A stretch of 12,147 nt of DNA from Candidatus Thorarchaeota archaeon (GTDB lineage Archaea > Asgardarchaeota > Thorarchaeia > Thorarchaeales > Thorarchaeaceae): assembly GCA_048882325.1 (NCBI GenBank), contig JBHLRS010000065.1, positions 1 to 12,147 on the forward strand, in the 5' to 3' direction. The translations under genes were made by a program, and so were the position numbers. Below the pieces are notes generated by a model that ran no database searches, was not told the DNA's origin, and was given only the letters and a program-made list of their open reading frames with translations. Of the stretch, positions 1 through 12,147 are shown one piece after another; position 1 is the stretch's first letter; each line of letters begins with the position of its first letter.

Positions 1-1247
1 CCAGCCATGATCTGAGGTCCACGGACCCACAGCTCTCCGGGTTCCCCAACAGGAGGTTCCTCCCCGGTTTCAGGATCCAAAACACGAATCTCAGTGTCTG
101 GTAATGGTACACCAACACCACGCTTGACCTGTTTCATGAAGCCCGTGACCTTTGAAAATGCAGAGATATTCACCGTAGCGGCTCCAGAGGTCTCTGTTGC
201 CCCATATCCCTCCCCCATAGGGACACCTGAGATTTTCTCAAACTCCTCAGCAACTTCAGGAGGAAGACCTGCAGCAGCCGAATAATAGAATATCTGACCT
301 TTCTTTAGTGGCATATTGCAGAACACGATATAGTGGGCTGGTACAGCGAAGACAATAGCTGGTCTGTATTCATTGATTACATCGACAATTTTCACCATGT
401 CTCTTGGATCCATCAAGAAAATCTTCAGACCCCACGAAATACTCGCGTGAATCGCCCAGTGACCATACGTATGGAATATGGGGACGCAGACTGCAGTTGC
501 TCCTTTCCCGACAATCCCAACTTTCAGCGGCGCCAGCATCCAGTGGATCGTTTGGACCACATTGGAAGTGAGATTGTAGTGTGTCAGCATTGTGCCCTTT
601 GGGACGCCAGTTGTCCCCCCGGTGAAAGGAAGAAGGGCAACGTCCTTCTTCGGGTCTATCTTTACCTGTTCGGTGTGAGGCTCATGCTTCTCAATCAGGT
701 CACTCATGAGATAGTAGCCAGCATCCGTTATTGGGTCCATTTCAGGAGTTTCATAGTCTGGATAGATCTTAGTAGGGGTATAGATGACCGTCTTCACATT
801 GGTCTGTGGTTTGACCTCGTTGACGCGGGGGATTCTACGATATGAACAGACAACAGTCTGGGCCTTGCTCTCCTTGAGTTCGTGTAGCAAGTCATCAGCC
901 TTGTGCAGAATACTTAGAGGTACATGAATTGCTCCAACCTTCATACACGCAAAATCCGCAATAATAAACTCCGGACATGATGGGAGTACTGTTGCCACTG
1001 TGTCTCCTTTCTTGACACCAAGTTCGACAAAGGCAGTCGCAAGTCTGTCAACCTTATCCTTCAACTCAGGGTAAGTCATCTCTTCATCCGCGTAGACACA
1101 AGCTATAGCCTGTGGGTACTCCTGTACAGAATTCTCCAAGAATGAATAGACGTTCATCTCAGGATAGGGTTCCATAGAATGTTTCAGCTTGTATGGTCCA
1201 AGGAAGTATGCCTTGAGCCAGGGTTTGTCCTGATACGATGATGTCAT
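1..1247 (-). CDS. fadD: Long-chain-fatty-acid--CoA ligase (AMP-binding/ANL family), 3'-truncated by the window edge
   Basis: Not in the ORF track because its stop lies outside the window. Manual translation from ATG at 1247: MTSSYQDKPWLKAYFLGPYKLKHSMEPYP...; AMP-binding loop FTGGTTGVPKG (about 595-627), PIFHTYG, EGYGATET, GVPLPDTEIRVLDPETG, GELWVRGPQIMAG at the edge; about 415 codons in one frame. AGGTGAT RBS just upstream. Confidence 0.93.
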   Translation of the reverse strand, partial: MTSSYQDKPWLKAYFLGPYKLKHSMEPYPEMNVYSFLENSVQEYPQAIACVYADEEMTYPELKDKVDRLATAFVELGVKKGDTVATVLPSCPEFIIADFACMKVGAIHVPLSILHKADDLLHELKESKAQTVVCSYRRIPRVNEVKPQTNVKTVIYTPTKIYPDYETPEMDPITDAGYYLMSDLIEKHEPHTEQVKIDPKKDVALLPFTGGTTGVPKGTMLTHYNLTSNVVQTIHWMLAPLKVGIVGKGATAVCVPIFHTYGHWAIHASISWGLKIFLMDPRDMVKIVDVINEYRPAIVFAVPAHYIVFCNMPLKKGQIFYYSAAAGLPPEVAEEFEKISGVPMGEGYGATETSGAATVNISAFSKVTGFMKQVKRGVGVPLPDTEIRVLDPETGEEPPVGEPGELWVRGPQIMA

Positions 1248-1251
1248 CGCG

Positions 1252-1258
1252 ATCACCT
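1252..1258 (-). promoter_or_regulatory. Shine-Dalgarno site (AGGTGAT) of the acyl-CoA ligase
   Basis: Minus strand reads ataggtgatcgcgATG; archaeal-type GGTGA motif 4-5 nt before the ATG. Confidence 0.7.
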
Positions 1259-1277
1259 ATTATGGATATACTACTTG

Positions 1278-3149
1278 TCAATAAATTTGGTCAATTGCCC
1301 ATTCCAGTCCAAGTTCCGTCAGCTTCTCCTTTGTTGGCTTACCATCCTTGTCCCACCCTCGAAACTCATAGTAACTTGCTAACATTGGTTCTAAATCCAC
1401 AACGAGTCCCTCGGCTGGACCTTCGGGCATGTGATCTTCCAATAATCTTGGAGGAAGCGTGTCATCAGCGCGTGTCGCCCCTTCGCGAATATTGTAAATC
1501 TTTTCAAGATTGTAGATTCTCTCACCGGTCTTCCTGAAGTCAGCTGCAGTATATTCAATGCCCATAAGGTTCGACAACAAGACCGCCCAATCATCTGCGG
1601 TCATCACGATGCCCATGAACTTGCATGCACCTACAGCATCAAAGATTTGAAAGGCATCCTCAAAGTCCTTCAGAATAACTGACTTCTCGGGTATTTCCTT
1701 TTGGGGGTCTCCTACATTTGCATCATCCACAATCATGAAGGGCATTGAGAGAAACGCGGGACCTTCAATCCATGCAGTGATATGGTCTCCACCTCTGATT
1801 GCCGTAGCATAAGCCAGACCCGTGATCTTTGCAGCACGACTGTCATATGCTGGTAGTTCAAGTCCCTTGACATGCATGGCAAAGTGCTCAGAACCTTTAC
1901 CAAACTTCTCTGCCATTCTCTTGGTTCCCTCAGCCATAACATCTCCAAACCCCTCTCGCATGGCTATCTTAGGTATAATTTCTGAGATGATGTTCTTGTC
2001 ACCAAACTTGAACTCAATCCCGCCAGTGTCATCTTTTGTTATAATTCCCTTCTCAAAACACTCCATAGTGAAGGCTATAGTGCTACCTGCTGAGATTACA
2101 TCAACACCATAATCGTTACAGAGGAAGTGTGCCATCGAGATTGCTTCAAGGTCATCAACACCACACATACTACCAAAAGCACCTATTGATTCATACTCAG
2201 GCCCTTCTCCCCTACTCTTGAATTTTCCATCCTTGATTTCAGCAACTCGACCGCATGCAATTGGGCAAGCAAAGCAGGGCTTACGTGATGCGAGAATTGT
2301 ATCGTTGAGAGCCGTACCATTGATGTTTTCTGCACCTTCAAAAATCCCGGTCTGAAAATTACGCGTTGGCAGCCCTCCGACAACCTGGCAGAGATCGACC
2401 ATAGTGGCTGTTCCATAGACCTCCAAGGTCATCTTGAGCATGCTCTGGTTCACCCAGTCGAACCTCTTCTTGGCCTCTTCTCTATACTTCTCAGGATTGG
2501 CAACTGGAATCTGTGCCTTGCCATAGGATACTACTGCCTTCAGGTTCTTTCTACCCATCACCGTTCCGAGGCCACATCTGCCAGCCGCACGACCAAAGTA
2601 CTCTTCATCACAGTCATTCATTATTGCTGCAAATTTCACAAGCTTCTCGCCTGCTGGACCAATGCACGAAACATTATGCTTGGGACCGTGTTTTTCCTTC
2701 AGAATCTTAGTGGTTTCAGACGTTGTCTTTCCCCATACCTCGGATGCATCCAGTAGCTCTGCCTTGCCATCCTCTGTCAGGAGATACACAGGTTTTGGTG
2801 AGATTCCTTCGAAGATAATTCCATCAAAGCCAGAACGCTTGAAGTCCTTCGCCCAGAATCCTGCAGAGTTTGCCTGACCCCATAAGTTTGTGAGTGGCGA
2901 TTTAGCAACTACACTGTATCTGCCTGCACTCGGAGACTGAGTCCCTGTAAGAGGTCCTGTCATGAAAATGAGTGGGTTATCTGGTCCTAAGGGGTCGATT
3001 CCTTTCTCAGTTTCATTAATCAGATACCATGTCGCGAGACCGGCACCACCAAGATACATCCTGAGTATCTCGTCGTCAGGAAACTCCTCTGTTATTGTCC
3101 CGTCGGTGAGGTTGACCCGAAGTATCTTTCCCATGTATCCCTTCAGCAT
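1278..3149 (-). CDS. aor: Aldehyde:ferredoxin oxidoreductase (tungstopterin, [4Fe-4S]; AOR family)
   Basis: 623 aa; N-terminus GYMGKILRVNLT, KSPLT, AAGRCGLGTVMG, Fe-S motif CFACPIAC plus distal Cys in DAVGACKF, GPEYES, LCNDYGVD, HVKGLELPAYD, RGGDH, C-terminal YYEFRGWD..GKP. Confidence 0.96.
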   Translation of the reverse strand: MLKGYMGKILRVNLTDGTITEEFPDDEILRMYLGGAGLATWYLINETEKGIDPLGPDNPLIFMTGPLTGTQSPSAGRYSVVAKSPLTNLWGQANSAGFWAKDFKRSGFDGIIFEGISPKPVYLLTEDGKAELLDASEVWGKTTSETTKILKEKHGPKHNVSCIGPAGEKLVKFAAIMNDCDEEYFGRAAGRCGLGTVMGRKNLKAVVSYGKAQIPVANPEKYREEAKKRFDWVNQSMLKMTLEVYGTATMVDLCQVVGGLPTRNFQTGIFEGAENINGTALNDTILASRKPCFACPIACGRVAEIKDGKFKSRGEGPEYESIGAFGSMCGVDDLEAISMAHFLCNDYGVDVISAGSTIAFTMECFEKGIITKDDTGGIEFKFGDKNIISEIIPKIAMREGFGDVMAEGTKRMAEKFGKGSEHFAMHVKGLELPAYDSRAAKITGLAYATAIRGGDHITAWIEGPAFLSMPFMIVDDANVGDPQKEIPEKSVILKDFEDAFQIFDAVGACKFMGIVMTADDWAVLLSNLMGIEYTAADFRKTGERIYNLEKIYNIREGATRADDTLPPRLLEDHMPEGPAEGLVVDLEPMLASYYEFRGWDKDGKPTKEKLTELGLEWAIDQIY

Positions 3150-3188
3150 GTTGTTTCATTCCCCTGACAGAAGTGTCAATCTCTAATT

Positions 3189-3638
3189 TTAGTCAAAAAA
3201 CTCTGTTTCTATGGATGCAGCACTTGCAACAAGTTCTTTGGCCGCCTCAGTAGCTCGCAGAATCTTAGGCATATCCCCTTCAACTTTTGCTTGTCCAGAG
3301 AGCAAAGCACGAATGGGATCCAATTCCTTAGTCAGTATCTTTTCCCAGACATCAATCCGTGCTGTGTAGACAAACTCCACCTCATAGGGTTTCCCAGAAG
3401 GTTTGTCCCCCTTGTTCAGAAGAGTGAATTCTTCACCCTCTTTCAATATTGCAGATCCGGTGCATTTCCCATGGTGGAGACCCACCCATATCTTGATCTG
3501 ATGGTCCAAGCCACCATGTGGCTCAGCTTGAAAAACGAAGTCACCTTCCCACCAGTCTGCTGCTTTCGCATACGCTTCGTTAGAATTTATCGCATCAATG
3601 ATTAATTCCGCATATTCTGGAGTTCCGAATTTTACCAT
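3189..3638 (-). CDS. SCP2 sterol/lipid-binding domain protein
   Basis: 149 aa; FGTPEY..INSNEAY..AA..WEGDF N-terminus and the SCP2 C-terminal signature VWEKILTKELDPIRALLSGQAKVEGDMPKILR; GAGAGGA RBS upstream. Confidence 0.85.
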   Translation of the reverse strand: MVKFGTPEYAELIIDAINSNEAYAKAADWWEGDFVFQAEPHGGLDHQIKIWVGLHHGKCTGSAILKEGEEFTLLNKGDKPSGKPYEVEFVYTARIDVWEKILTKELDPIRALLSGQAKVEGDMPKILRATEAAKELVASAASIETEFFD

Positions 3639-3653
3639 GTGTCATTCCTCTCG

Positions 3654-4058
3654 TTATTTCTTGTCAAGTACTAGTATTTTAGGTAGTGCGAGGAGCTTTC
3701 TATATGCCCTCCCCTTGAACTGGAGTTTTCTGTTACCAAACCGGTTCTTCTTCGTCATCATGTGCATGACCGAGTACTGACCATTACAGAAGAACATAAG
3801 GTCCTCTGGATCGGCTATCAGATCGAGGTCTCGCTCATCAAGAGAATCTCTTGAAACAGTGTACTCCCCGTCCTTTGCTACGAGATTAATCCACAGTATC
3901 TCATCCTCTTCCACCTGTAGTCCGATATTGAACCTACCCTCGAATGAATCCAATCTCTTGGTGTTCTTTGGATTCTCTCTCTTGTCAGCAATTATACCGT
4001 CGATAACTGCTTTGATGGTCAGAAACAGTGTGTCTCTCTGTGTGTCATCCATGCTCAT
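3654..4058 (-). CDS. Divergent SCP2-like lipid-binding domain protein
   Basis: 134 aa; beta-rich core (RFNIGLQV, WINLVAKDGEYTVS) then DLDLIADPEDLMFFCNGQYSVMHMM...KLQFKG, resembling the SCP2 'D..i.ad.edl..l..Ge.....a...gklk.kG' pattern; first gene of the operon, 15 nt from the next gene. Confidence 0.65.
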   Translation of the reverse strand: MSMDDTQRDTLFLTIKAVIDGIIADKRENPKNTKRLDSFEGRFNIGLQVEEDEILWINLVAKDGEYTVSRDSLDERDLDLIADPEDLMFFCNGQYSVMHMMTKKNRFGNRKLQFKGRAYRKLLALPKILVLDKK

Positions 4059-4114
4059 TCACGACTTTACTTTGCTTCGCTCTGGGTTTCTCTAAGCCCC
4101 ATTTCAATATTCTG

Positions 4115-4127
4115 GACCAAATTGGTC
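4115..4127. promoter_or_regulatory. Palindrome GACCAA-A-TTGGTC in divergent intergenic region, candidate operator
   Basis: Perfect 6-bp inverted repeat with 1-nt spacer between the SCP2-AOR-ligase operon and the beta-helix gene. Confidence 0.35.
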
Positions 4128-4196
4128 GATAGATTCATTCGGAATTCTTAAAGGTTGATTTCCGCAGGAGTAATTACTAAGGATGGGGGTACAGAT

Positions 4197-6878
4197 TTGG
4201 TTGGAATCAAAGAAAAATCATCAATCTTGGTCTTTCTACTACTCTTTGCTATACCACAGCTCTCTCTGTTTCAAGTGAATTACTTTGGTCGAACCTTCGA
4301 ATCAATCTCAACAAGTGACTCCTATCTTGGTGAAGTAATAACAATAACATCTGATGCGGAATTCGCGGCTGTTGCTTCTAGCATGAGTTTCCCTGGGAAT
4401 GGTTCTCTAGGAAATCCCTATGTGATTGCAGACCTAGACATTGATTACATCCATATCTATGGCACAACTGTCTATTTTGAAATAAGAAGGTGCTATTTTG
4501 CTCCCACTTCAGATCCACGCAGCATAGATTTTGATACTGTGGAAAATGGGCTGGTTGATTCATGTGTGATTGAAGACCGACCCAATGGGATCAAGGTCGC
4601 TGCCTCTACTGGTATCATCATCTCAAACAACACACTGCGTTCACTGATTGTTGAGAGCATCTCTGTCGATTTTTCCTTTTACAGTGATATCATTAACAAC
4701 AGCATAATTTCAGATGGACAGAGTACAGCCATTGGATGCTACAAATCATACTACCTAACCATTGATAGCAATACAATCACCGACTGTCGGGATGGTCTGT
4801 ATCTTCCTTTCTCCGAATATCTGAATATAACCAACAATCATGTCACGAACTGCGGATATGGGCTGTTTTCTTCTGGTGGTTTTGACATCCATGTGGCAAA
4901 CAACACTTTTGTCAACACTGCTGTATTCTTGAACTCATTTGACTCAACAATGACATTCACCAACAACACAGTCAACGGGTTGGCGCTAGGCGTATTTTCA
5001 AGTCTGTCTGATGAGGTCTTGGATGCAAGTCAATTTGGTCAATTGATTTTGTGGTTGTCCAATAATGTCACAATTGTCAATGGGACATTCAATCAGCTCT
5101 CCCATTGCATCGAACTGATGTCTTGTTGGGACTGTACCATCGAGAATGTCACGTTCGCCAATTCAGCTCATGGAATCTGGATGACTTCATCAACTGCTTG
5201 TGAAATCAGAAATGTGACCTTCAGAGAGAATTACGGTTGGCCACTTTATGCTGAGAAATCGCACAACCTCTTACTCATCAATTCAACTATCGAGTCAGAT
5301 GGTGATCCAATTCTGTTGTTCGAAACCTTGAATTGTACTATAATTGGGAACAGATTCATCAATTCGTACATCTCTTTCAAGCGAGGTGTCGAGAGATACT
5401 CGTACGGTAGTAACTCGATAGAATACTTCGTTCACCACATCGAGGACAACACGGTTGATGACCTCCTCTTGGGATATTTCCTTAATGAAACCGGTGTTGT
5501 CGCAGATCTTGAAGAATATGGGCAGATGGTCATCGTCAACTGTACTGACTTTGATTTGGGTCCCTCCACAATACTAGATAGGGTAGTCCAGATTCAGGTC
5601 TTTCACTCACGAGATATCTCTCTTGTTGATTGTGATATTCAAAGTAATGGCACTTCAATGGTCATGTTTATTCAATCTCCACATTGTAATATCACTGATT
5701 GCGACGTGGAGTTCACGAGTTTCCTCATACATGAATCATCGGACATTATTTTCTCTAAGAACACCATGAGTTCTGAATCGGGTAACTTCATTCTTGGACT
5801 CCGCATGGAATCTTGTGCCAATTCCACAATTGAGGAAAATGCACTATCGGGTCCGTATATCGAGGGTCTTCTCGTAATGGCATCACCAAATGCTACTGTC
5901 AAATCGAATGAATTGGTGAATGTATACTTCGGTCTAGTTCTAGAAGGTGACAACAGTCTGGTGAAAAGCAACAATGTCATCGCAAGCGAATCGAATGGTC
6001 TATCTGTTCTTCGGTCGTCAAACTGCACAATAGAGGACAACGACTGTAGATACAATTCAGCGAGTGGTCTGGTGGTGGATGAGTGCATCAATACAACGAT
6101 ATCGAAAAACATTGCTATCACTAATGACGTCGGTCTTCGACTCTCTGAATCGACTCGCTGCTTAGTGGATTCCAATCGGTTCGAACAGAATCACGATTAT
6201 GGTGGCTATATGACCTACTCCACTTTCTGTACTATCGTCAACAACAGTGTTCGATTCAACTGGGATGTTGGACTTCGTGCGCAACATTCATCGAACAACT
6301 CCTTCTATCTGAACCGCCTCGGTTGGAATGATGCCAGGAATGCACTGGATGATGGCTTTAACAACACGTGGGACAACGGAGTTGATACGGGCAACCTTTG
6401 GAATGATTACTCTGGCATTGGTGTCTACAATATTCCAGGAACTGCACAGAGTGTGGATCGGTTCCCAGGGGTCTTACTGGCAGAGGATGGCTCACCTCCG
6501 ACTCTGAGCAGTCCGACAGACATCATCTATGAGTTTGGGACCTCCGGCAATATGATCTACTGGCAAGCCACAGATCAGTATCCTCATACCTATCAGCTGG
6601 AACGCAATGGAACAGTAATCGAGAGTGGCCCATGGGAGAGTGAGATATTTGCCATCAATATCGATGGACTTGAGATAGGTGTCTATAACTTCACACTAAC
6701 AGTGTGTGACGAGGGTGGTCTCTGCAGAAGTGACACCGTATTCGTTAGCGTGGTTCGTCAACTACCGCAGCACGATGATCTTCCATATCTGCTGGTACTA
6801 GTCGGAGGCGGATTTTTCATCTCGATTATTATCGTCATCATTCTGATTCGAATCAGAAAACGACCGATTCCGACCTGA
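4197..6878 (+). CDS. Membrane-anchored right-handed parallel beta-helix (NosD/pectin lyase-like) cell-surface protein with C-terminal Ig-like domain
   Basis: Signal-like KEKSSILVFLLLFAIP; GNGSLGNPYVI motif; many G(I/L)xLxxSxNxTIxNN turns; NosD-type cap NALDDGFNNTWD..GNLWNDY..YNIPG....DRFP; Ig-like PTLSSPTDIIYE..GVYNFTLTVCD..SDTVFV; C-terminal TM helix followed by RIRKR. TTG at 4197 after GGGGGT preferred over TTG 4155 (start uncertain). Confidence 0.88.
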   Translation: MVGIKEKSSILVFLLLFAIPQLSLFQVNYFGRTFESISTSDSYLGEVITITSDAEFAAVASSMSFPGNGSLGNPYVIADLDIDYIHIYGTTVYFEIRRCYFAPTSDPRSIDFDTVENGLVDSCVIEDRPNGIKVAASTGIIISNNTLRSLIVESISVDFSFYSDIINNSIISDGQSTAIGCYKSYYLTIDSNTITDCRDGLYLPFSEYLNITNNHVTNCGYGLFSSGGFDIHVANNTFVNTAVFLNSFDSTMTFTNNTVNGLALGVFSSLSDEVLDASQFGQLILWLSNNVTIVNGTFNQLSHCIELMSCWDCTIENVTFANSAHGIWMTSSTACEIRNVTFRENYGWPLYAEKSHNLLLINSTIESDGDPILLFETLNCTIIGNRFINSYISFKRGVERYSYGSNSIEYFVHHIEDNTVDDLLLGYFLNETGVVADLEEYGQMVIVNCTDFDLGPSTILDRVVQIQVFHSRDISLVDCDIQSNGTSMVMFIQSPHCNITDCDVEFTSFLIHESSDIIFSKNTMSSESGNFILGLRMESCANSTIEENALSGPYIEGLLVMASPNATVKSNELVNVYFGLVLEGDNSLVKSNNVIASESNGLSVLRSSNCTIEDNDCRYNSASGLVVDECINTTISKNIAITNDVGLRLSESTRCLVDSNRFEQNHDYGGYMTYSTFCTIVNNSVRFNWDVGLRAQHSSNNSFYLNRLGWNDARNALDDGFNNTWDNGVDTGNLWNDYSGIGVYNIPGTAQSVDRFPGVLLAEDGSPPTLSSPTDIIYEFGTSGNMIYWQATDQYPHTYQLERNGTVIESGPWESEIFAINIDGLEIGVYNFTLTVCDEGGLCRSDTVFVSVVRQLPQHDDLPYLLVLVGGGFFISIIIVIILIRIRKRPIPT

Positions 6879-6893
6879 TGAACTCATCAAACC

Positions 6894-8558
6894 TTACTTG
6901 TCTGAAGAAACTCCTTCATACTCTGCTCTAATGAGCTTCTTGTCTATCTTCCCAACACTCGTCTTTGGGACTGATTCCACAAACAGGATCTCGTCTGGAA
7001 GCTGCCATTTTGCAAAGCATTTAGCGAGATGCTCAAGAATTTCCTTCTTGTCCACCCTCGTATTAGATTCATCATGTAATACCACCAAAGCCAGTGGTCT
7101 CTCTCCCCACTTTTGGTCCGGAACACCAACAACAGCTGCCTCCATCACTGCAGGATGATTGACTATCTCGTTCTCCATGTCTACTGAGGATATCCATTCT
7201 CCGCCACTTTTGATTAGGTCTTTCGTTCGATCGGTCAGCTTTAGATATCCTTCTGGATCAATGGACCCCACATCTCCCGTTCTGAAGTATCCATCTGCTG
7301 TGAACTGCTCCTCAGAACCTGGGGCATCATGATATCTTCCAAGGACCCATGGTCCTCGCACAAGTATCTCCCCTACTGATTCACCGTCATGAGGAATTTT
7401 CTTACTCTCAGAGTCTGCAACCCTGACATCAAGTCCCACTACAATTTGTCCCTGCTTCTTCTTCAGTTCCCACTTCTCCTCCTCTGAGAGCTCTTTGGTC
7501 AACCAAGGAGTTGGCTTGTTCAACGTAACAATAGCCTGCGCCTCAGTAGATCCATACGTATGAACAATCTCCGCCTTAGTTGTTTCCCAGAACTTTCTCA
7601 TCATAGACAGAGGTGGCTCTGACCCACCAGTGAGAAACCGAACACCTGAGAGATCTGGTATCGGGTCCTTCTGCAGAAGATTGTTGAGCAAAGCCCTCAG
7701 GATTGATGGTACTCCTGCAGATATCGTCACCTTCTCTTGCACTAGCATCTCTATAAGCTCATCAAGACTATCCAAACTATACCTTCCAGGCAAGACAAGT
7801 TTTGCACCAGTCATGATGGCAGCATATGGTGTCCCCCATCCTAATACATGAAACATAGGGACAATTTGGAGCACACAGTCCTCCACTGTGATCATGGCAT
7901 TGAGTGCATACATCATCGCTTGGAGATACACATCCCGGTGGGAATAGTAAACCCCCTTTGGTTGCCCTGTTGTACCAGATGTATAGCATGCACTTGAGGC
8001 TGAGGTTTCTTCCAAGTTGGGCCAGTCATATCTGGTTTCTGCATCACTCAAGTAGTCTTCGTAGCTGTAGACTGGTTCCAAATTTGTCTGAACATCTCTC
8101 AGATTCCTGTCAGTCAGAATCACAAAACCCTGAACCATTTCACACATCGATGCTGCGGCCTCGACAATAGGTAAGAACTCCTCATCCGCAAAGATGAATC
8201 GGATTCCCGAATGATTCACAACATAACTCAGTTCCTGCGGCGTAAACCGTGGATTCATGAGGACCATTACAGCACCGCTCCCTGGGATACCAAAATAAAT
8301 CTCGAGGTTCCGATGCGAGTTCGATGCAAGTACACCAATCCGGTCTCCAACCTTCACACCAAGTGAGGATAAAGAACTCGCAAGTCGTTGCACACGTTCG
8401 TAGGCCCTGCTGTATGTATATCGAACCATTGACCCATCTGGATTTCTGCTAACAATCTCCTGCTTGCCAAAATTCCTAGCTGCATGTTTGATGATCGTAG
8501 CTAGATTCAGCTGGGAGCTGGTTTGCGACGTGGCAGGAAAACCCTTGATAATTTCCAT
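6894..8558 (-). CDS. Medium/long-chain-fatty-acid--CoA ligase (AlkK-like subfamily)
   Basis: CYTSGTTGQPKGVYYSHR, VPMFHVLGWG, YGSTE, GEILVRGPWV, FRTGDVG, DRTKDLIKSGGEWISS, PKTSVGKIDKK. Start moved from 8609 to ATG 8558 (MEIIKGFP), preceded by GGAGTGA; 554 aa. Confidence 0.94.
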   Translation of the reverse strand: MEIIKGFPATSQTSSQLNLATIIKHAARNFGKQEIVSRNPDGSMVRYTYSRAYERVQRLASSLSSLGVKVGDRIGVLASNSHRNLEIYFGIPGSGAVMVLMNPRFTPQELSYVVNHSGIRFIFADEEFLPIVEAAASMCEMVQGFVILTDRNLRDVQTNLEPVYSYEDYLSDAETRYDWPNLEETSASSACYTSGTTGQPKGVYYSHRDVYLQAMMYALNAMITVEDCVLQIVPMFHVLGWGTPYAAIMTGAKLVLPGRYSLDSLDELIEMLVQEKVTISAGVPSILRALLNNLLQKDPIPDLSGVRFLTGGSEPPLSMMRKFWETTKAEIVHTYGSTEAQAIVTLNKPTPWLTKELSEEEKWELKKKQGQIVVGLDVRVADSESKKIPHDGESVGEILVRGPWVLGRYHDAPGSEEQFTADGYFRTGDVGSIDPEGYLKLTDRTKDLIKSGGEWISSVDMENEIVNHPAVMEAAVVGVPDQKWGERPLALVVLHDESNTRVDKKEILEHLAKCFAKWQLPDEILFVESVPKTSVGKIDKKLIRAEYEGVSSDK

Positions 8559-8652
8559 TGTTGTCACTCCTGCTGGATGGTCACTAACCTTTCCTGTAAT
8601 CCTCAACATTTTTCATTACCGGTTTCATGATTTACAGAGGTGGTTTGATAAA

Positions 8653-9492
8653 ATGGGAAAACTTGATGATAGAGTTGCTGTCATCACTGGTGCAGCAAGT
8701 GGAATTGGGAAAGCAATTGCAGAGCTATTTGCAGAAGAAGGCGCACATGTAGTCGTTAGTGATATACACGATGAATTTGGTCAACAGGTTGCTAGCACAC
8801 TTGGAAAAAAAGCCACCTACATACATGCTGATGTTAGTGTGGAACGAGATGTGAAGGGAATGATTGATCATGCTGTTGATACCTATGGTCGTCTTGACTG
8901 CATTGTCAATAATGCTGGGATGGGCGGTGTCAAAGGCGAGATTGAGTCTGTCCCTGTTGAGGACTTTGACAGAACAATAGGGATTCTACTTCGGGGCGTT
9001 TTTTTGGGGATGAAACATGCAGCGCCAGTCATGAAAAAACAAGGAGGAGGGACTATGATTAACATCTCCAGCGTTGCTGGTCTTCGGGGCGTTTCTCAAA
9101 ATCATCCGTATAGTGCTGCCAAAGCCGCAGTCCTCCAGTTGACTCGAACAGTGGCGATGGAGTTGGCATACTACAAAATCCGAGTAAACAGTATCTGTCC
9201 TGGCTCTATTGTGAGTTCTATTTTCGGTGCAGCTCAAGGAATGTCAAGTGAAGAGAGCGTCCAGACCTATGAGAATCTGAAAAAACTGTTTGAAAAGGGC
9301 CAACCAATTCGACGTGCAGGTCTCCCTGAGGATGTCGCCAATGCAGCACTATGGCTAGCAAGTGATGACTCGAGCTTCGTCACTGGGCATGCCCTTGTTG
9401 TTGATGGTGGCGTAAGTGCAGGACAGCAGTGGACACAGCAGATGCGATGGATTGACATGATTGAATCTGCCCTCGACTCGGAACCGAAGTGA
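8653..9492 (+). CDS. Classical short-chain dehydrogenase/reductase (probably NAD-dependent)
   Basis: TGAASGIG, acidic residue after beta2 (VVVSDI), NNAG, catalytic S and YSAAK, IRVNSICPG, SFVTGHALVVDGG. Start at ATG 8653 (MGKLDDRVAVITG) after GAGGTGG; the track's 63-aa extension overlaps the opposite-strand ligase; 279 aa. Confidence 0.94.
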   Translation: MGKLDDRVAVITGAASGIGKAIAELFAEEGAHVVVSDIHDEFGQQVASTLGKKATYIHADVSVERDVKGMIDHAVDTYGRLDCIVNNAGMGGVKGEIESVPVEDFDRTIGILLRGVFLGMKHAAPVMKKQGGGTMINISSVAGLRGVSQNHPYSAAKAAVLQLTRTVAMELAYYKIRVNSICPGSIVSSIFGAAQGMSSEESVQTYENLKKLFEKGQPIRRAGLPEDVANAALWLASDDSSFVTGHALVVDGGVSAGQQWTQQMRWIDMIESALDSEPK

Positions 9493-9564: not shown

Positions 9565-10512
9565 ATGGATTATCTAAATCAGCTGACGGACTCATCTACA
9601 ATGGAAGCAACAAAGGAAACAATCAATCTAAACATCATCTGTCCTGACCCTACCTGTGCAACGCGAAAAGAGATTGCAATTCCCTGGTCCTCTTTGTCAC
9701 AGTCCGAATCAGGCATAGTTACAATATCAATCTCAAAAGGTCTTGTTTGTAATCACAGTTTCCAAGTCTTTGTAGACAAGAGTGGCCGTGTTCGTGGATA
9801 CAAAAAACCAGACCTTGAGCTTACTTTTACACCGGTTGATGAGGAGGACGAACGCAGTAATGAAACACGGATTCAGGAGCAAGATAGAGTACTACAGGGC
9901 CTCCAAGTCATACTTGGAGATGAGATGCTTCTCAAGCTAGTACGAACTTCATTAGGCAATCTCCCAATCTACACGATTACAGATATTCCCTCTATCAGTA
10001 CCATGATGACGAATCTCAAGCATATTGTTGATCCGTATGTAAATGAGTTCACTGTCTGCTCACTACAGGAATATAACCAGAAACATCGGACTCTCCTATC
10101 CTTACCTGGTTATGACGATGCTTTTGTCATTGCAATTGACCAACACATCATCATAAACCAGACCTATGATAACAAATTCAAAGAAAAGGACTATGCCTTC
10201 GAAAGATCCCTTTTGAGGATGATTGATTTCGATAAATCAAACGAGTCAATCTCAAAAGAGTTCCACTCTCTGTTTGACCACATCATCGATGTAGCCACAA
10301 AGCTCAAGGATGAATTCCATCAAGACAAGTTTTCAAACAAGAAGGATGTAAGCAAGCGAATCTCGAAATTGACTGTTAAGAAATTAGCATTTGATGTTGA
10401 CTCTGCCAAACACATTTTGAGGAATCGCCTAGATTTCGATATGGATGAGTATTTCAAGGAAAGATCCCGAGCTTCTGAATGGGGAAAAGGCATCTTAGAT
10501 TTGACTGGCTAG
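9565..10512 (+). CDS. Hypothetical protein with N-terminal putative Zn-binding domain (CxxxxC...CxH), Asgard-type family
   Basis: 315-aa ORF; ICPDPTC...EIAIP...IVTISISKGLVCNHSFQVFVDKSGRVRGYKKPD resembles a motif I recall from Asgard hypothetical proteins; soluble, helical C-terminal part. Alternative start ATG 9601. Confidence 0.8.
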   Translation: MDYLNQLTDSSTMEATKETINLNIICPDPTCATRKEIAIPWSSLSQSESGIVTISISKGLVCNHSFQVFVDKSGRVRGYKKPDLELTFTPVDEEDERSNETRIQEQDRVLQGLQVILGDEMLLKLVRTSLGNLPIYTITDIPSISTMMTNLKHIVDPYVNEFTVCSLQEYNQKHRTLLSLPGYDDAFVIAIDQHIIINQTYDNKFKEKDYAFERSLLRMIDFDKSNESISKEFHSLFDHIIDVATKLKDEFHQDKFSNKKDVSKRISKLTVKKLAFDVDSAKHILRNRLDFDMDEYFKERSRASEWGKGILDLTG

Positions 10513-10536: not shown

Positions 10537-11034
10537 TTAGATTGTCTTCATGATGCGACGGAGTAATTCTACTAGTTCATTGATGTTTTCGCCAGACTTT
10601 GAACTTACCATGAGTGAATGTATCTGCATTCGTTCCGCCATCTCTGAGATGTCCTCTTTGGAAACAAAACACGGTTGGTCAATCTTTGTACCTACCAAAA
10701 TTTTCCTTTCATTTGGTATATGGTCGATCATCGGTAACCACTCATCAATTTCTAGGAGTGTGTGGAAGTTAGTACAATCAACCACAATCAAGACTAGGTG
10801 AGCTCCAGTCAGTAGAGATCCTTGAAAGAATCGGAACTGTTTTTGCCCTCCAAAATCAAAACAGGACACTCTGATTGCTCCAGAGTCATTTGGTACTATT
10901 GTCCAAGATTCTACATCGAATCCTACAGTCATCTTCTGATCCACAAATATGCCTGTAGATAGACGAGCTATTAAGGTGGACTTACCTGCTCCTCCCGACC
11001 CGACGACGGCTAGTTTTACAGTTCTGACTCCCAA
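10537..11034 (-). CDS. Small GTPase, Ras superfamily (Rab/Arf/Roc-like)
   Basis: 165 aa, TTG start; G1 GSGGAGKST, G2 MTVG, G3 DFGGQ, G4 TKID, G5 SSK followed by GENINEL. Confidence 0.93.
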   Translation of the reverse strand: MGVRTVKLAVVGSGGAGKSTLIARLSTGIFVDQKMTVGFDVESWTIVPNDSGAIRVSCFDFGGQKQFRFFQGSLLTGAHLVLIVVDCTNFHTLLEIDEWLPMIDHIPNERKILVGTKIDQPCFVSKEDISEMAERMQIHSLMVSSKSGENINELVELLRRIMKTI

Positions 11035-11102: not shown

Positions 11103-11414
11103 TCATGATTTTATCCTGAATAGACCAATCAAGAAGAAAAGAAGACTCAGAAGCGCTGCGCCTTCGTAAATCTCTACAACTTTCTCTCCTATTATTGGAA
11201 TCCATTCAAATCCTGTTTTACTTAAGATTCCGGCAATTCCTCCGTATAAGCCTGAGAATGCCAGGACAAGGAAAGCTACAAAGAAGAACCTGGCGAGTAC
11301 ACTCTCTGTTTCTCTGTATTTTCTTAGAGTATAGAATGACAACAGCAAGTATATCATGCCATACCCTAGCTCAATTGAGTACTCAACTAGATGTGGAATA
11401 TCAAGCTGAAGCAT
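11103..11414 (-). CDS. Small 3-TM membrane protein (paralog B)
   Basis: Start moved to ATG 11414 (MLQLDIPHL), preceded by GGAGGTTGA; 103 aa; three hydrophobic segments; overlaps the upstream gene by 14 nt. Confidence 0.8.
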   Translation of the reverse strand: MLQLDIPHLVEYSIELGYGMIYLLLSFYTLRKYRETESVLARFFFVAFLVLAFSGLYGGIAGILSKTGFEWIPIIGEKVVEIYEGAALLSLLFFLIGLFRIKS

Positions 11415-11742
11415 CGCCTGAATCAACCTCCTGAGATTTTCTGACGCCCAGTCCTTGCAATCCATAGAAGAACAAGGCGCCTGCCATAAATTGTACACCT
11501 TCAATTAATGCCTCGAGATATTCCTCCTCTATTGCGATGCCAGCTGCTTGTGGAAGCAAAGTCACCTTCATGATTATCGATGAGGCAATGACCAAGAAGG
11601 CGAGTCCGATTAGTAGCAGCACTCTGCTTTTTACTCTAGAATAAGAAAACAGTGTGTAGATTCCAAGAAACAGGAATCCCACTCCTGCCACTAGTTGTAG
11701 GGCTAGCACTACTAAAGGGTCGGTCCAGATAATAGACATCAT
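11401..11742 (-). CDS. Small 3-TM membrane protein (paralog A)
   Basis: Start moved to ATG 11742 (or 11739), MMSIIWTDPL; 113 aa; three hydrophobic segments with a basic loop YSRVKSR after TM1; TATA-like box about 25-30 nt upstream. Confidence 0.8.
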   Translation of the reverse strand: MMSIIWTDPLVVLALQLVAGVGFLFLGIYTLFSYSRVKSRVLLLIGLAFLVIASSIIMKVTLLPQAAGIAIEEEYLEALIEGVQFMAGALFFYGLQGLGVRKSQEVDSGDASA

Positions 11743-11765
11743 GCCTTGCTTTGTTCCAGTCTGAA

Positions 11766-11789
11766 TATTTAATATTATTCTGTTTTTCT
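11766..11789 (-). promoter_or_regulatory. Putative archaeal BRE/TATA promoter for the 3TM-3TM-GTPase unit (probably leaderless mRNA)
   Basis: Minus strand reads agaaaaacagaaTAATATTAAATA, ending about 24 nt before ATG 11742; no clear RBS before that ATG. Confidence 0.45.
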
Positions 11790-12147
11790 GATAATCACCC
11801 AACATTTTGTAACTATATGATTTTTGAAGAGCTTGATGATTTGCGATATCTGTAACTATTTCCTCTGTTCTCAGTTTCCGTTTTACATTGCTCAGTTTAT
11901 TCTTGCCAGCGAATTATTGATCTTTGGATTCTTTCTAACAACTATGAGCTGGCGAGTTGAGATAATTTAACAGTGCCGTCAGGGTTGTGTAAACTCTGAA
12001 AAGTGCAAACCTTTTTGCGAAAGGTGAATGATGTATTATCAGAGATCAGAAGTAGATGGATTTAGGAAACTGATTATCCTGTTCTAGATTAGATCGAATG
12101 GATTATAGATTGACCGAGTGATTGAGGTCATTTGGAACCGAAAACTA

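Follow-up and report, generated by a model that had tools for sequence, protein, structure and literature searches.

In eukaryotes, fatty alcohols and phytol are catabolised by the fatty aldehyde dehydrogenase ALDH3A2 together with an acyl-CoA synthetase and SCP2 or SCPx. Other described systems with which the locus reported here can be compared are the tungsten-type aldehyde:ferredoxin oxidoreductases (AORs) of the “AOR proper” type, such as Pyrococcus furiosus AOR (1AOR) and Aromatoleum aromaticum AorB (8C0Z), the UbiJ and UbiT proteins of the ubiquinone-biosynthesis metabolon (6H6O), and the carboxylic acid reductases (CARs; PMC5826065). AOR-family enzymes are among the most expanded, most highly expressed and least understood of Asgard archaea (PMC11291895), and papers on these organisms leave the numerous AORs generic or unclassified (PMC11291895; PMC8163825). 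The window analysed here, 12,147 bases in length, is one entire contig (C65) of a Candidatus Thorarchaeota assembly (3.6 Mb in 89 contigs, 93% complete), with same-genus relatives in records also labelled Candidatus Thorarchaeota, e.g. AB_25 and SMTZ1-45. At positions 1-4058 it carries, on the minus strand, four co-oriented genes coding for two small proteins of SCP2 fold, the first of which we call U134, an AOR and an ANL-family acyl-CoA ligase, in the order U134, SCP2, AOR, ligase. On balance, this operon is probably the split version of a module, found across Asgard archaea, through which aldehydes of poor solubility enter CoA-dependent catabolism anaerobically.

The window AOR shares with P. 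furiosus AOR and the other “AOR proper” enzymes, AorB included, the same Pfam domains, the Fe-S cysteine motif, the Glu and His residues and an aromatic-lined hydrophobic pocket but, in contrast to what is described for characterised AORs, it is found in an operon with an acyl-CoA ligase, to which many of its relatives are fused, and with two SCP2-fold proteins. Unlike A. aromaticum AorB, it has no AorA/AorC-type subunits, and the third aromatic residue of the pocket is Ile or Met here. A free-standing SCP2 fold that may present a hydrophobic substrate to soluble enzymes is reminiscent of UbiJ and UbiT, although the pathway and the partner enzymes are different and no sequence similarity was detected. 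As in CARs, an ANL domain is fused in relatives to an enzyme interconverting acids and aldehydes; unlike in CARs, the domains come in the reverse order, a phosphopantetheine carrier domain is lacking, a tungsten enzyme serves as redox partner, and the direction is probably oxidative. An earlier note, made from the sequence of the window alone, had seen in the operon an oxygen-independent analogue of the eukaryotic route of fatty aldehyde dehydrogenase, acyl-CoA synthetase and SCP2. The parallel in function may stand, in that an alcohol would pass through aldehyde and acid to acyl-CoA with the aid of an SCP2-type carrier, but it is one of analogy only: oxidation in Asgard archaea would rely on a tungstopterin/ferredoxin enzyme that is not homologous to the NAD-dependent ALDH, and would take place in the cytosol and without oxygen. 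Each of the parts belongs to a well-known family, and what is new is their combination, an AOR with dedicated SCP2 carriers that is coupled or fused to a CoA ligase; we found no description of such a module in the papers searched on AORs with lipid carriers, fatty aldehydes, fused synthetases or Thorarchaeota. The features of the operon are as follows.

3654-4058, minus strand: U134, 134 aa, operon gene 1, from the open reading frame list and the sequence.
3189-3638, minus strand: SCP2 protein, 149 aa, operon gene 2, from a borderline Pfam SCP2 match and the fold.
1278-3149, minus strand: tungsten-type AOR, 623 aa, operon gene 3, from domains AFOR_N and AFOR_C.
1-1247, minus strand: ANL-family acyl-CoA ligase, N-terminal 415 aa, operon gene 4, with its ATG at 1247 and leaving the window at base 3, from domain AMP-binding.
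4059-4154: intergenic region of 96 nt between the operon and a divergent NosD-like gene, presumed from its position to be the promoter region.

Successive genes are separated by 15, 39 and 30 nt, purine runs resembling Shine-Dalgarno sequences (GAGAGG, AGGGGA and AGGTGAT) precede genes 2-4, and no terminator-like sites were found on the minus strand within the four-gene block. The co-orientation, gaps and ribosome-binding sites noted earlier were thus confirmed by the open reading frame list and the sequence, and the assignment of the four genes to one operon is supported.

To follow this association beyond the window, we surveyed U134 neighbourhoods at the best 80 of 106 matches in species-representative genomes, counted as species-level loci. 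The colinear order U134-SCP2-AOR-ligase is that of the window's own genus (10 of the 80 loci), while 20 loci have a divergent order with ligase and AOR on one side and a ThiS/MoaD-like gene, SCP2 and U134 on the other, 34 have U134 next to a divergent gene for an Fe-alcohol dehydrogenase (Fe-ADH), and 16 show other arrangements, mostly because the contig ends beside the gene. SCP2 together with an AOR of the clade to which the window enzyme belongs (hereafter the ligase-linked clade, defined by at least 64% identity) occurs at 30 of the 80 loci, and at 24 of those 30 the ligase is present as well; an AOR of a sister clade occurs at 22, nearly always behind the Fe-ADH. Any AOR was found at 52/80 loci, and an AOR or a linked Fe-ADH at 67/80. 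Since the window genome contains 12 AOR paralogues in its 3.6 Mb, an AOR would be expected within 8 kb of a random gene in about 6% of cases, as compared with the 65-84% observed per locus, and the association is therefore far beyond chance.

The divergent order is found in other Thorarchaeota, and a second Asgard family has the arrangement AOR-ligase-SCP2 with U134 nearby. It is accordingly most improbable that the SCP2-fold genes code for proteins of general lipid transfer, or for unrelated ones, which came to adjoin the AOR-ligase pair by chance and have no functional link with it: the window genome does have nine Pfam-SCP2 matches in varied contexts, and U134 and SCP2 lie several kb apart in many second-family loci, but three families have retained the linkage despite inversion, fusion and exchange of the SCP2 subtype. 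For three Asgard families, this conservation bears out the check proposed earlier, which was to look for AOR, SCP2 and FadD neighbourhoods in the genomes of Asgard archaea and other anaerobes.

Overall, U134 is present in 94 of 301 sampled Asgard genomes and is confined to three families, and the ligase-linked AOR clade is present in 68 of the 301. The family f22 has no U134, and 14 of its 21 genomes carry a ligase-linked AOR. In all seven loci examined (six from f22 and one from f18) this AOR is divergently adjacent to an Fe-ADH and to an SCP2 of another subtype, SCP2b, the one that heads a second locus in the window genome, and in six of the seven the orthologous ligase and a ThiS-like gene stand beside the AOR; in the f18 locus the contig breaks off after the AOR, and in one f22 locus the only ligase nearby is a distant one. 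The second locus of the window genome, on contig C12, reads SCP2-NMO/FabK-like-FeADH-AOR in one direction, its first gene being a paralogue of the 149-aa SCP2 protein with 36% identity. Loki-type loci add an SCPx-type thiolase with DUF35, a third SCP2, a FabK/NMO-like reductase, BKACE, a ferredoxin and a nearby acyl-CoA dehydrogenase; the SCPx-type thiolase and DUF35 next to SCP2 are a further likeness to the eukaryotic route. In two of them, L062 (7706-10405) and L068, the thiolase, DUF35, a 123-aa weak SCP2 and U134 follow in a row and can be compared, as a split version, with the eukaryotic SCPx thiolase-SCP2 fusion; an Fe-ADH, a ligase, two AORs and BKACE lie alongside. A different association was seen in a divergent lineage (L060:3594-8066), where SCP2 and U134 bracket an acetoacetate-decarboxylase-like gene, a FAD_binding_4 oxidase and a CCG/Fe-S (GlcF/HdrD-like) protein, and no AOR is present.

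The relationship between the AOR and the ligase is even closer in other genomes, where one open frame of about 1210-1240 codons encodes both (at six of the eight Thorarchaeota loci). Among species-level loci with both genes complete, 14 of 24 are fused and 10 are split. Protein databases hold 37 clusters of the fused form with AFOR_N, AFOR_C, AMP-binding and AMP-binding_C in one chain, save for one partial record lacking AMP-binding_C, and their AOR portions are 64-74% identical to the window AOR. In a maximum-likelihood tree, the fused forms are monophyletic inside the ligase-linked clade, and the window represents the split state of the pair. By the Rosetta-stone argument, fusion indicates that the two enzymes handle the same metabolite in succession, and we regard it as very likely that AOR and ligase act in sequence. 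The funnel from aldehyde through acid to acyl-CoA that had been proposed for the window is thus well supported by conserved synteny and by the fusions.

Two readings would run the chemistry in the opposite direction. AORs are reversible, and reduction of acids by AOR plus alcohol dehydrogenase is known from Thermoanaerobacter and acetogens (described in part in PMC7828175), so that AOR and the frequently linked Fe-ADH could convert acids into aldehydes and alcohols as an electron sink for reduced ferredoxin, with the SCP2 proteins carrying the products and the ligase used otherwise. We consider this very unlikely, as there is reason to fuse a CoA ligase to AOR only where AOR supplies the ligase with its acid, and no alcohol-consuming step is conserved nearby. 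Less likely still is an ATP-driven carboxylate reductase, in which the ANL domain would adenylate a fatty or isoprenoid acid and the tungsten centre would reduce the activated acyl group with ferredoxin. Were it true, this enzyme would cooperate with Fe-ADH and the SCP2 carriers in the synthesis of lipid aldehydes and alcohols, and would be a tungsten-based, carrier-domain-free analogue of CAR in archaeal relatives of eukaryotes.

Another fusion partner was encountered once. On a complete Thorarchaeota chromosome (a CP070761-type record), the AOR orthologue is fused to an EtfB-like domain of an electron-transfer flavoprotein (L048:3988-6870, minus strand, 960 aa) and followed by a ferredoxin-domain EtfA (2786-3985, minus strand, 399 aa), with SCP2, U134 and the ThiS-like gene still adjacent; this tungsten enzyme may be wired directly to the electron-transfer flavoprotein.

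The AOR itself is assigned with high scores to AFOR_N (PF02730; 255.6 bits, E 4e-76, cut-off 29.8) and AFOR_C (PF01314; 469.6 bits, E 1e-140, cut-off 27). Among solved structures, P. furiosus AOR 1aor is the closest (E 2e-154; 48% identity over the alignment read), followed by other “AOR proper” enzymes including AorB of A. aromaticum, while FOR, WOR5 and BamB gave much lower scores. The [4Fe-4S] ligands C292, C295, C299 and C509 (CxxCxxxC plus a distal Cys), the Glu of the EGPEYE motif and H456 align to P. furiosus AOR, and the cluster cysteines, this Glu and the catalytic His are invariant across 23 orthologues. Genes of the ThiS/MoaD-like and FdhD types adjoin AOR orthologues, which would indirectly suit the putative tungsten bis-pterin cofactor and aldehyde-oxidising activity.

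In the maximum-likelihood tree the ligase-linked clade and the ADH-linked clade are each supported at 100/100 and are sisters at 86/80; the window AOR falls within the former, whose members are always ligase-linked, and the contig C12 AOR within the latter, with the other paralogues of the window genome lying outside both. Among the database homologues, P0230 (1164 aa, 42% identity) carries the LAGLIDADG/intein domains PF14528, PF14527 and PF14890 and is an intein-containing AOR.

The ligase matches AMP-binding (PF00501) with 280 bits (E 3e-83) and shows an intact P-loop (TGGTTGVPKG) as well as the motif YGATE. Orthologues of full length have 564-571 aa and include AMP-binding_C (PF13193); as the window is a whole contig, the gene was cut by the assembly and not by biology, and the rest of the assembly did not yield the missing C-terminal part, in which the catalytic Lys is expected. 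Among NCBIfam models, long-chain-fatty-acid-CoA ligases score best, none of them reaching its cut-off (best PRK05605, 225 bits vs 766), in part because the gene is truncated, and the family assignment is generic. The nearest solved relatives of a full-length orthologue are FadD-1 of A. fulgidus (3g7s) and then feruloyl-CoA and 4-coumarate ligases.

The two small proteins preceding the AOR differ in how readily they can be recognised. The 149-aa protein scores marginally under the cut-off of Pfam SCP2 (PF02036; 21.1 bits vs 21.3, E 4e-4), but many of its relatives with 45-60% identity pass this model and are named “SCP2 sterol-binding domain-containing protein”. Its predicted structure (predicted local distance difference test, pLDDT, 94.2) has the Thermus thermophilus SCP2 protein 2cx7 as the best PDB match (template modelling score, TM, 0.76/0.87; 26% identity), and by homology and modelled fold it is a member of the SCP2 family. 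Its relatives among the matches listed are all from Asgard metagenome-assembled genomes. U134 has no match in Pfam or NCBIfam; its AlphaFold model (pLDDT 93.4) has top Foldseek PDB matches that are all SCP2 proteins (AF1534 3bn8, human SCP2 2c0l and UbiJ 6h6o; TM 0.55-0.68). A profile search of 1.84 billion representatives returned only 49 clusters, and the weakest of these (P0263, P0270 and P0273) pass Pfam SCP2 themselves, providing a sequence link to that family. No similarity between the U134 family and the 149-aa SCP2 family was detected by hhalign, so the claim of homology rests on the fold and on transitive profile hits, from which we read U134 as probably a divergent branch of the SCP2 family, restricted to Asgard archaea. 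All of the 106 matches come from Asgard metagenome-assembled genomes, save for one contig labelled as a bacterium with archaeal gene order (L115, Candidatus Nanopelagicaceae bacterium), which has the typical Asgard arrangement of AOR and FeADH divergent from U134 and was probably mis-binned. The suggestion of two SCP2-type carriers made from the sequence therefore agrees with both models. A complex of AOR, SCP2 and U134 was also predicted, but the score of U134 did not drop when AOR was replaced, so that the prediction speaks neither for nor against binding.

Other SCP2 genes of the window genome were also seen near related enzymes. On contig C5 (22917-24826, minus strand) a free-standing SCP2 gene (Pfam E 1.5e-13) is located directly upstream of another ANL ligase, and on contig C3 a further SCP2 lies about 6 kb from an FGGY-aldolase-linked AOR; in this genome, SCP2 genes seem to be regular companions of enzymes that activate acids. 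We considered as a possible second carrier pair a 135-aa and a 149-aa gene located beside alpha/beta hydrolases (L065), and discarded it, as neither shows similarity to the two families or a Pfam match.

Gene content, folds, conserved linkage and fusion are shown by these data, and from them we infer the direction of the reactions, the part played by the carriers and the kind of substrate, as in the following route. An Fe-ADH, present at other loci and in other genomes, and elsewhere in the window genome, would make the aldehyde from an alcohol; AOR would oxidise R-CHO to R-COOH at its tungstopterin centre and pass the electrons via the [4Fe-4S] cluster to ferredoxin; and the ANL ligase, fused to AOR in many relatives, would convert the acid to R-CO-SCoA at the expense of ATP. 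The two dissimilar SCP2-fold proteins would take up the hydrophobic species, be it alcohol, aldehyde, acid or acyl-CoA, and transfer it between a membrane or lipid phase and the soluble enzymes. The recurrence of Fe-ADH as an extra member fits an alcohol-to-aldehyde entry step, and activation with conversion of ATP to AMP would be worth its cost only when the acyl-CoA goes on to be broken down, a point that counts against C1-C2 substrates and with which the genes added in Loki-type loci agree. As to the class of substrate, we infer that it is somewhat more probably hydrophobic or lipid-like than otherwise, while its identification as specifically long-chain aliphatic or isoprenoid can be offered only tentatively. 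Of the substrate named in the earlier note, the hydrophobic character thus remains plausible, and the long-chain or isoprenoid nature is not shown, given the broad-specificity AOR clade and a ligase that resembles FadD and 4-coumarate ligases alike.

It should be kept in mind that a number of observations weigh against the lipid-aldehyde interpretation. P. furiosus AOR acts mainly on short, branched and aromatic aldehydes, and SCP2 folds bind many ligands. By sequence comparison the window AOR is in the broad-specificity “AOR proper” clade, which speaks against long-chain specificity, as does the likeness of the ligase to FadD-1 and to feruloyl and 4-coumarate ligases alike. The A. aromaticum AOR likewise prefers short, branched and aromatic aldehydes (PMC10413684). 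Genes for beta-oxidation are neighbours only in some Loki-type loci, and Thorarchaeota loci have no conserved beta-oxidation, lipase or membrane genes. U134 is sometimes found beside a 2-oxoacid:ferredoxin oxidoreductase or a FAD oxidase instead. Finally, the closest relatives have further genes at the end of the operon, namely GNAT, MaoC, a DapB/DAP-DH-like gene and a class-III aminotransferase, a block which could point to amine-derived aldehydes. The broad AOR clade, the generic ligase, the lack of a conserved lipase or membrane protein, the aminotransferase block and the alternative neighbours of U134 together preclude a firm call of a long-chain or isoprenoid substrate.

The substrate pocket does not settle the matter. 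In AorB, the substrate is held by three aromatic residues, Y468, F511 and F514, which are reported to be conserved in clades taking aromatic or larger substrates and not in FOR or GAPOR (PMC10413684). The window AOR has W460, F511 and I514 at these positions, and most orthologues have Y, F and M or I; the pocket thus appears, from the alignment, to be of the large hydrophobic “AOR proper” type with one aromatic replaced by an aliphatic residue, and these residues do not discriminate between aromatic and aliphatic substrates. Two retained aromatics and 48% identity to the P. furiosus enzyme would equally suit peptide fermentation, in which AOR oxidises amino-acid-derived aldehydes such as phenylacetaldehyde, indoleacetaldehyde and isovaleraldehyde, or those produced by aminotransferases or 2-oxoacid oxidoreductases. 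The ligase, with its resemblance to feruloyl and 4-coumarate ligases, would then make aryl-acetyl-CoA or branched acyl-CoA, and the SCP2 proteins would merely buffer moderately hydrophobic, reactive compounds. The aminotransferase and DAP-DH-like genes downstream in the closest relatives fit such a role, as does the position of U134 after a 2-oxoacid:ferredoxin oxidoreductase in one lineage. We nevertheless regard peptide fermentation as unlikely, though the most serious of the alternatives, since the recurrent partner is Fe-ADH rather than an aminotransferase or decarboxylase, two dedicated SCP2 proteins would be unexpected with water-soluble aldehydes, and the classical role could be left to the eleven other AOR paralogues. 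The aminotransferase block, moreover, is confined to the closest relatives; we had considered it as part of the module and rejected it, because it is not conserved in other genera and in the window genome it is located on other contigs, C15 and C72, in rearranged form.

One AOR clade thus acquires a defined context, made up of dedicated carriers of SCP2 type, an alcohol dehydrogenase and a CoA ligase that is adjacent or fused, and with it a testable function, in which fatty or isoprenoid alcohols and aldehydes of sediment organic matter would enter CoA metabolism anaerobically. The context also points to a role of SCP2 lipid carriers in the closest archaeal relatives of eukaryotes, and lipid-transfer proteins bear on eukaryogenesis (PMC12139934). 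The natural two-enzyme fusion may be of interest to biocatalysis. With ordinary amino-acid aldehydes as substrates, the finding would shrink to a new operon architecture.

The remainder of the contig contains several other genes. Divergent from the operon is a 907-aa NosD-like right-handed beta-helix protein (4155-6878, plus strand); a beta-helix protein is also found upstream of the operon in a close relative (L063) and is absent from this position in other genera. A second acyl-CoA ligase, which is complete (6894-8609, minus strand), is very similar to the Thermus thermophilus long-chain fatty acyl-CoA synthetase 1ult (E 4e-128) and scores above the PRK06187 cut-off; divergent from it is an SDR-family dehydrogenase (about 8670-9492, plus strand), and the two represent a further fatty-acid-type activity on the same contig as the operon. 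A 315-aa protein (9565-10512) and open reading frames of 133/134 aa (11103-11805) are without a convincing family, and the neighbouring gene at 10537-11034 on the minus strand codes for a 165-aa small GTPase of the Ras/Arf-like kind that Asgard genomes typically have.

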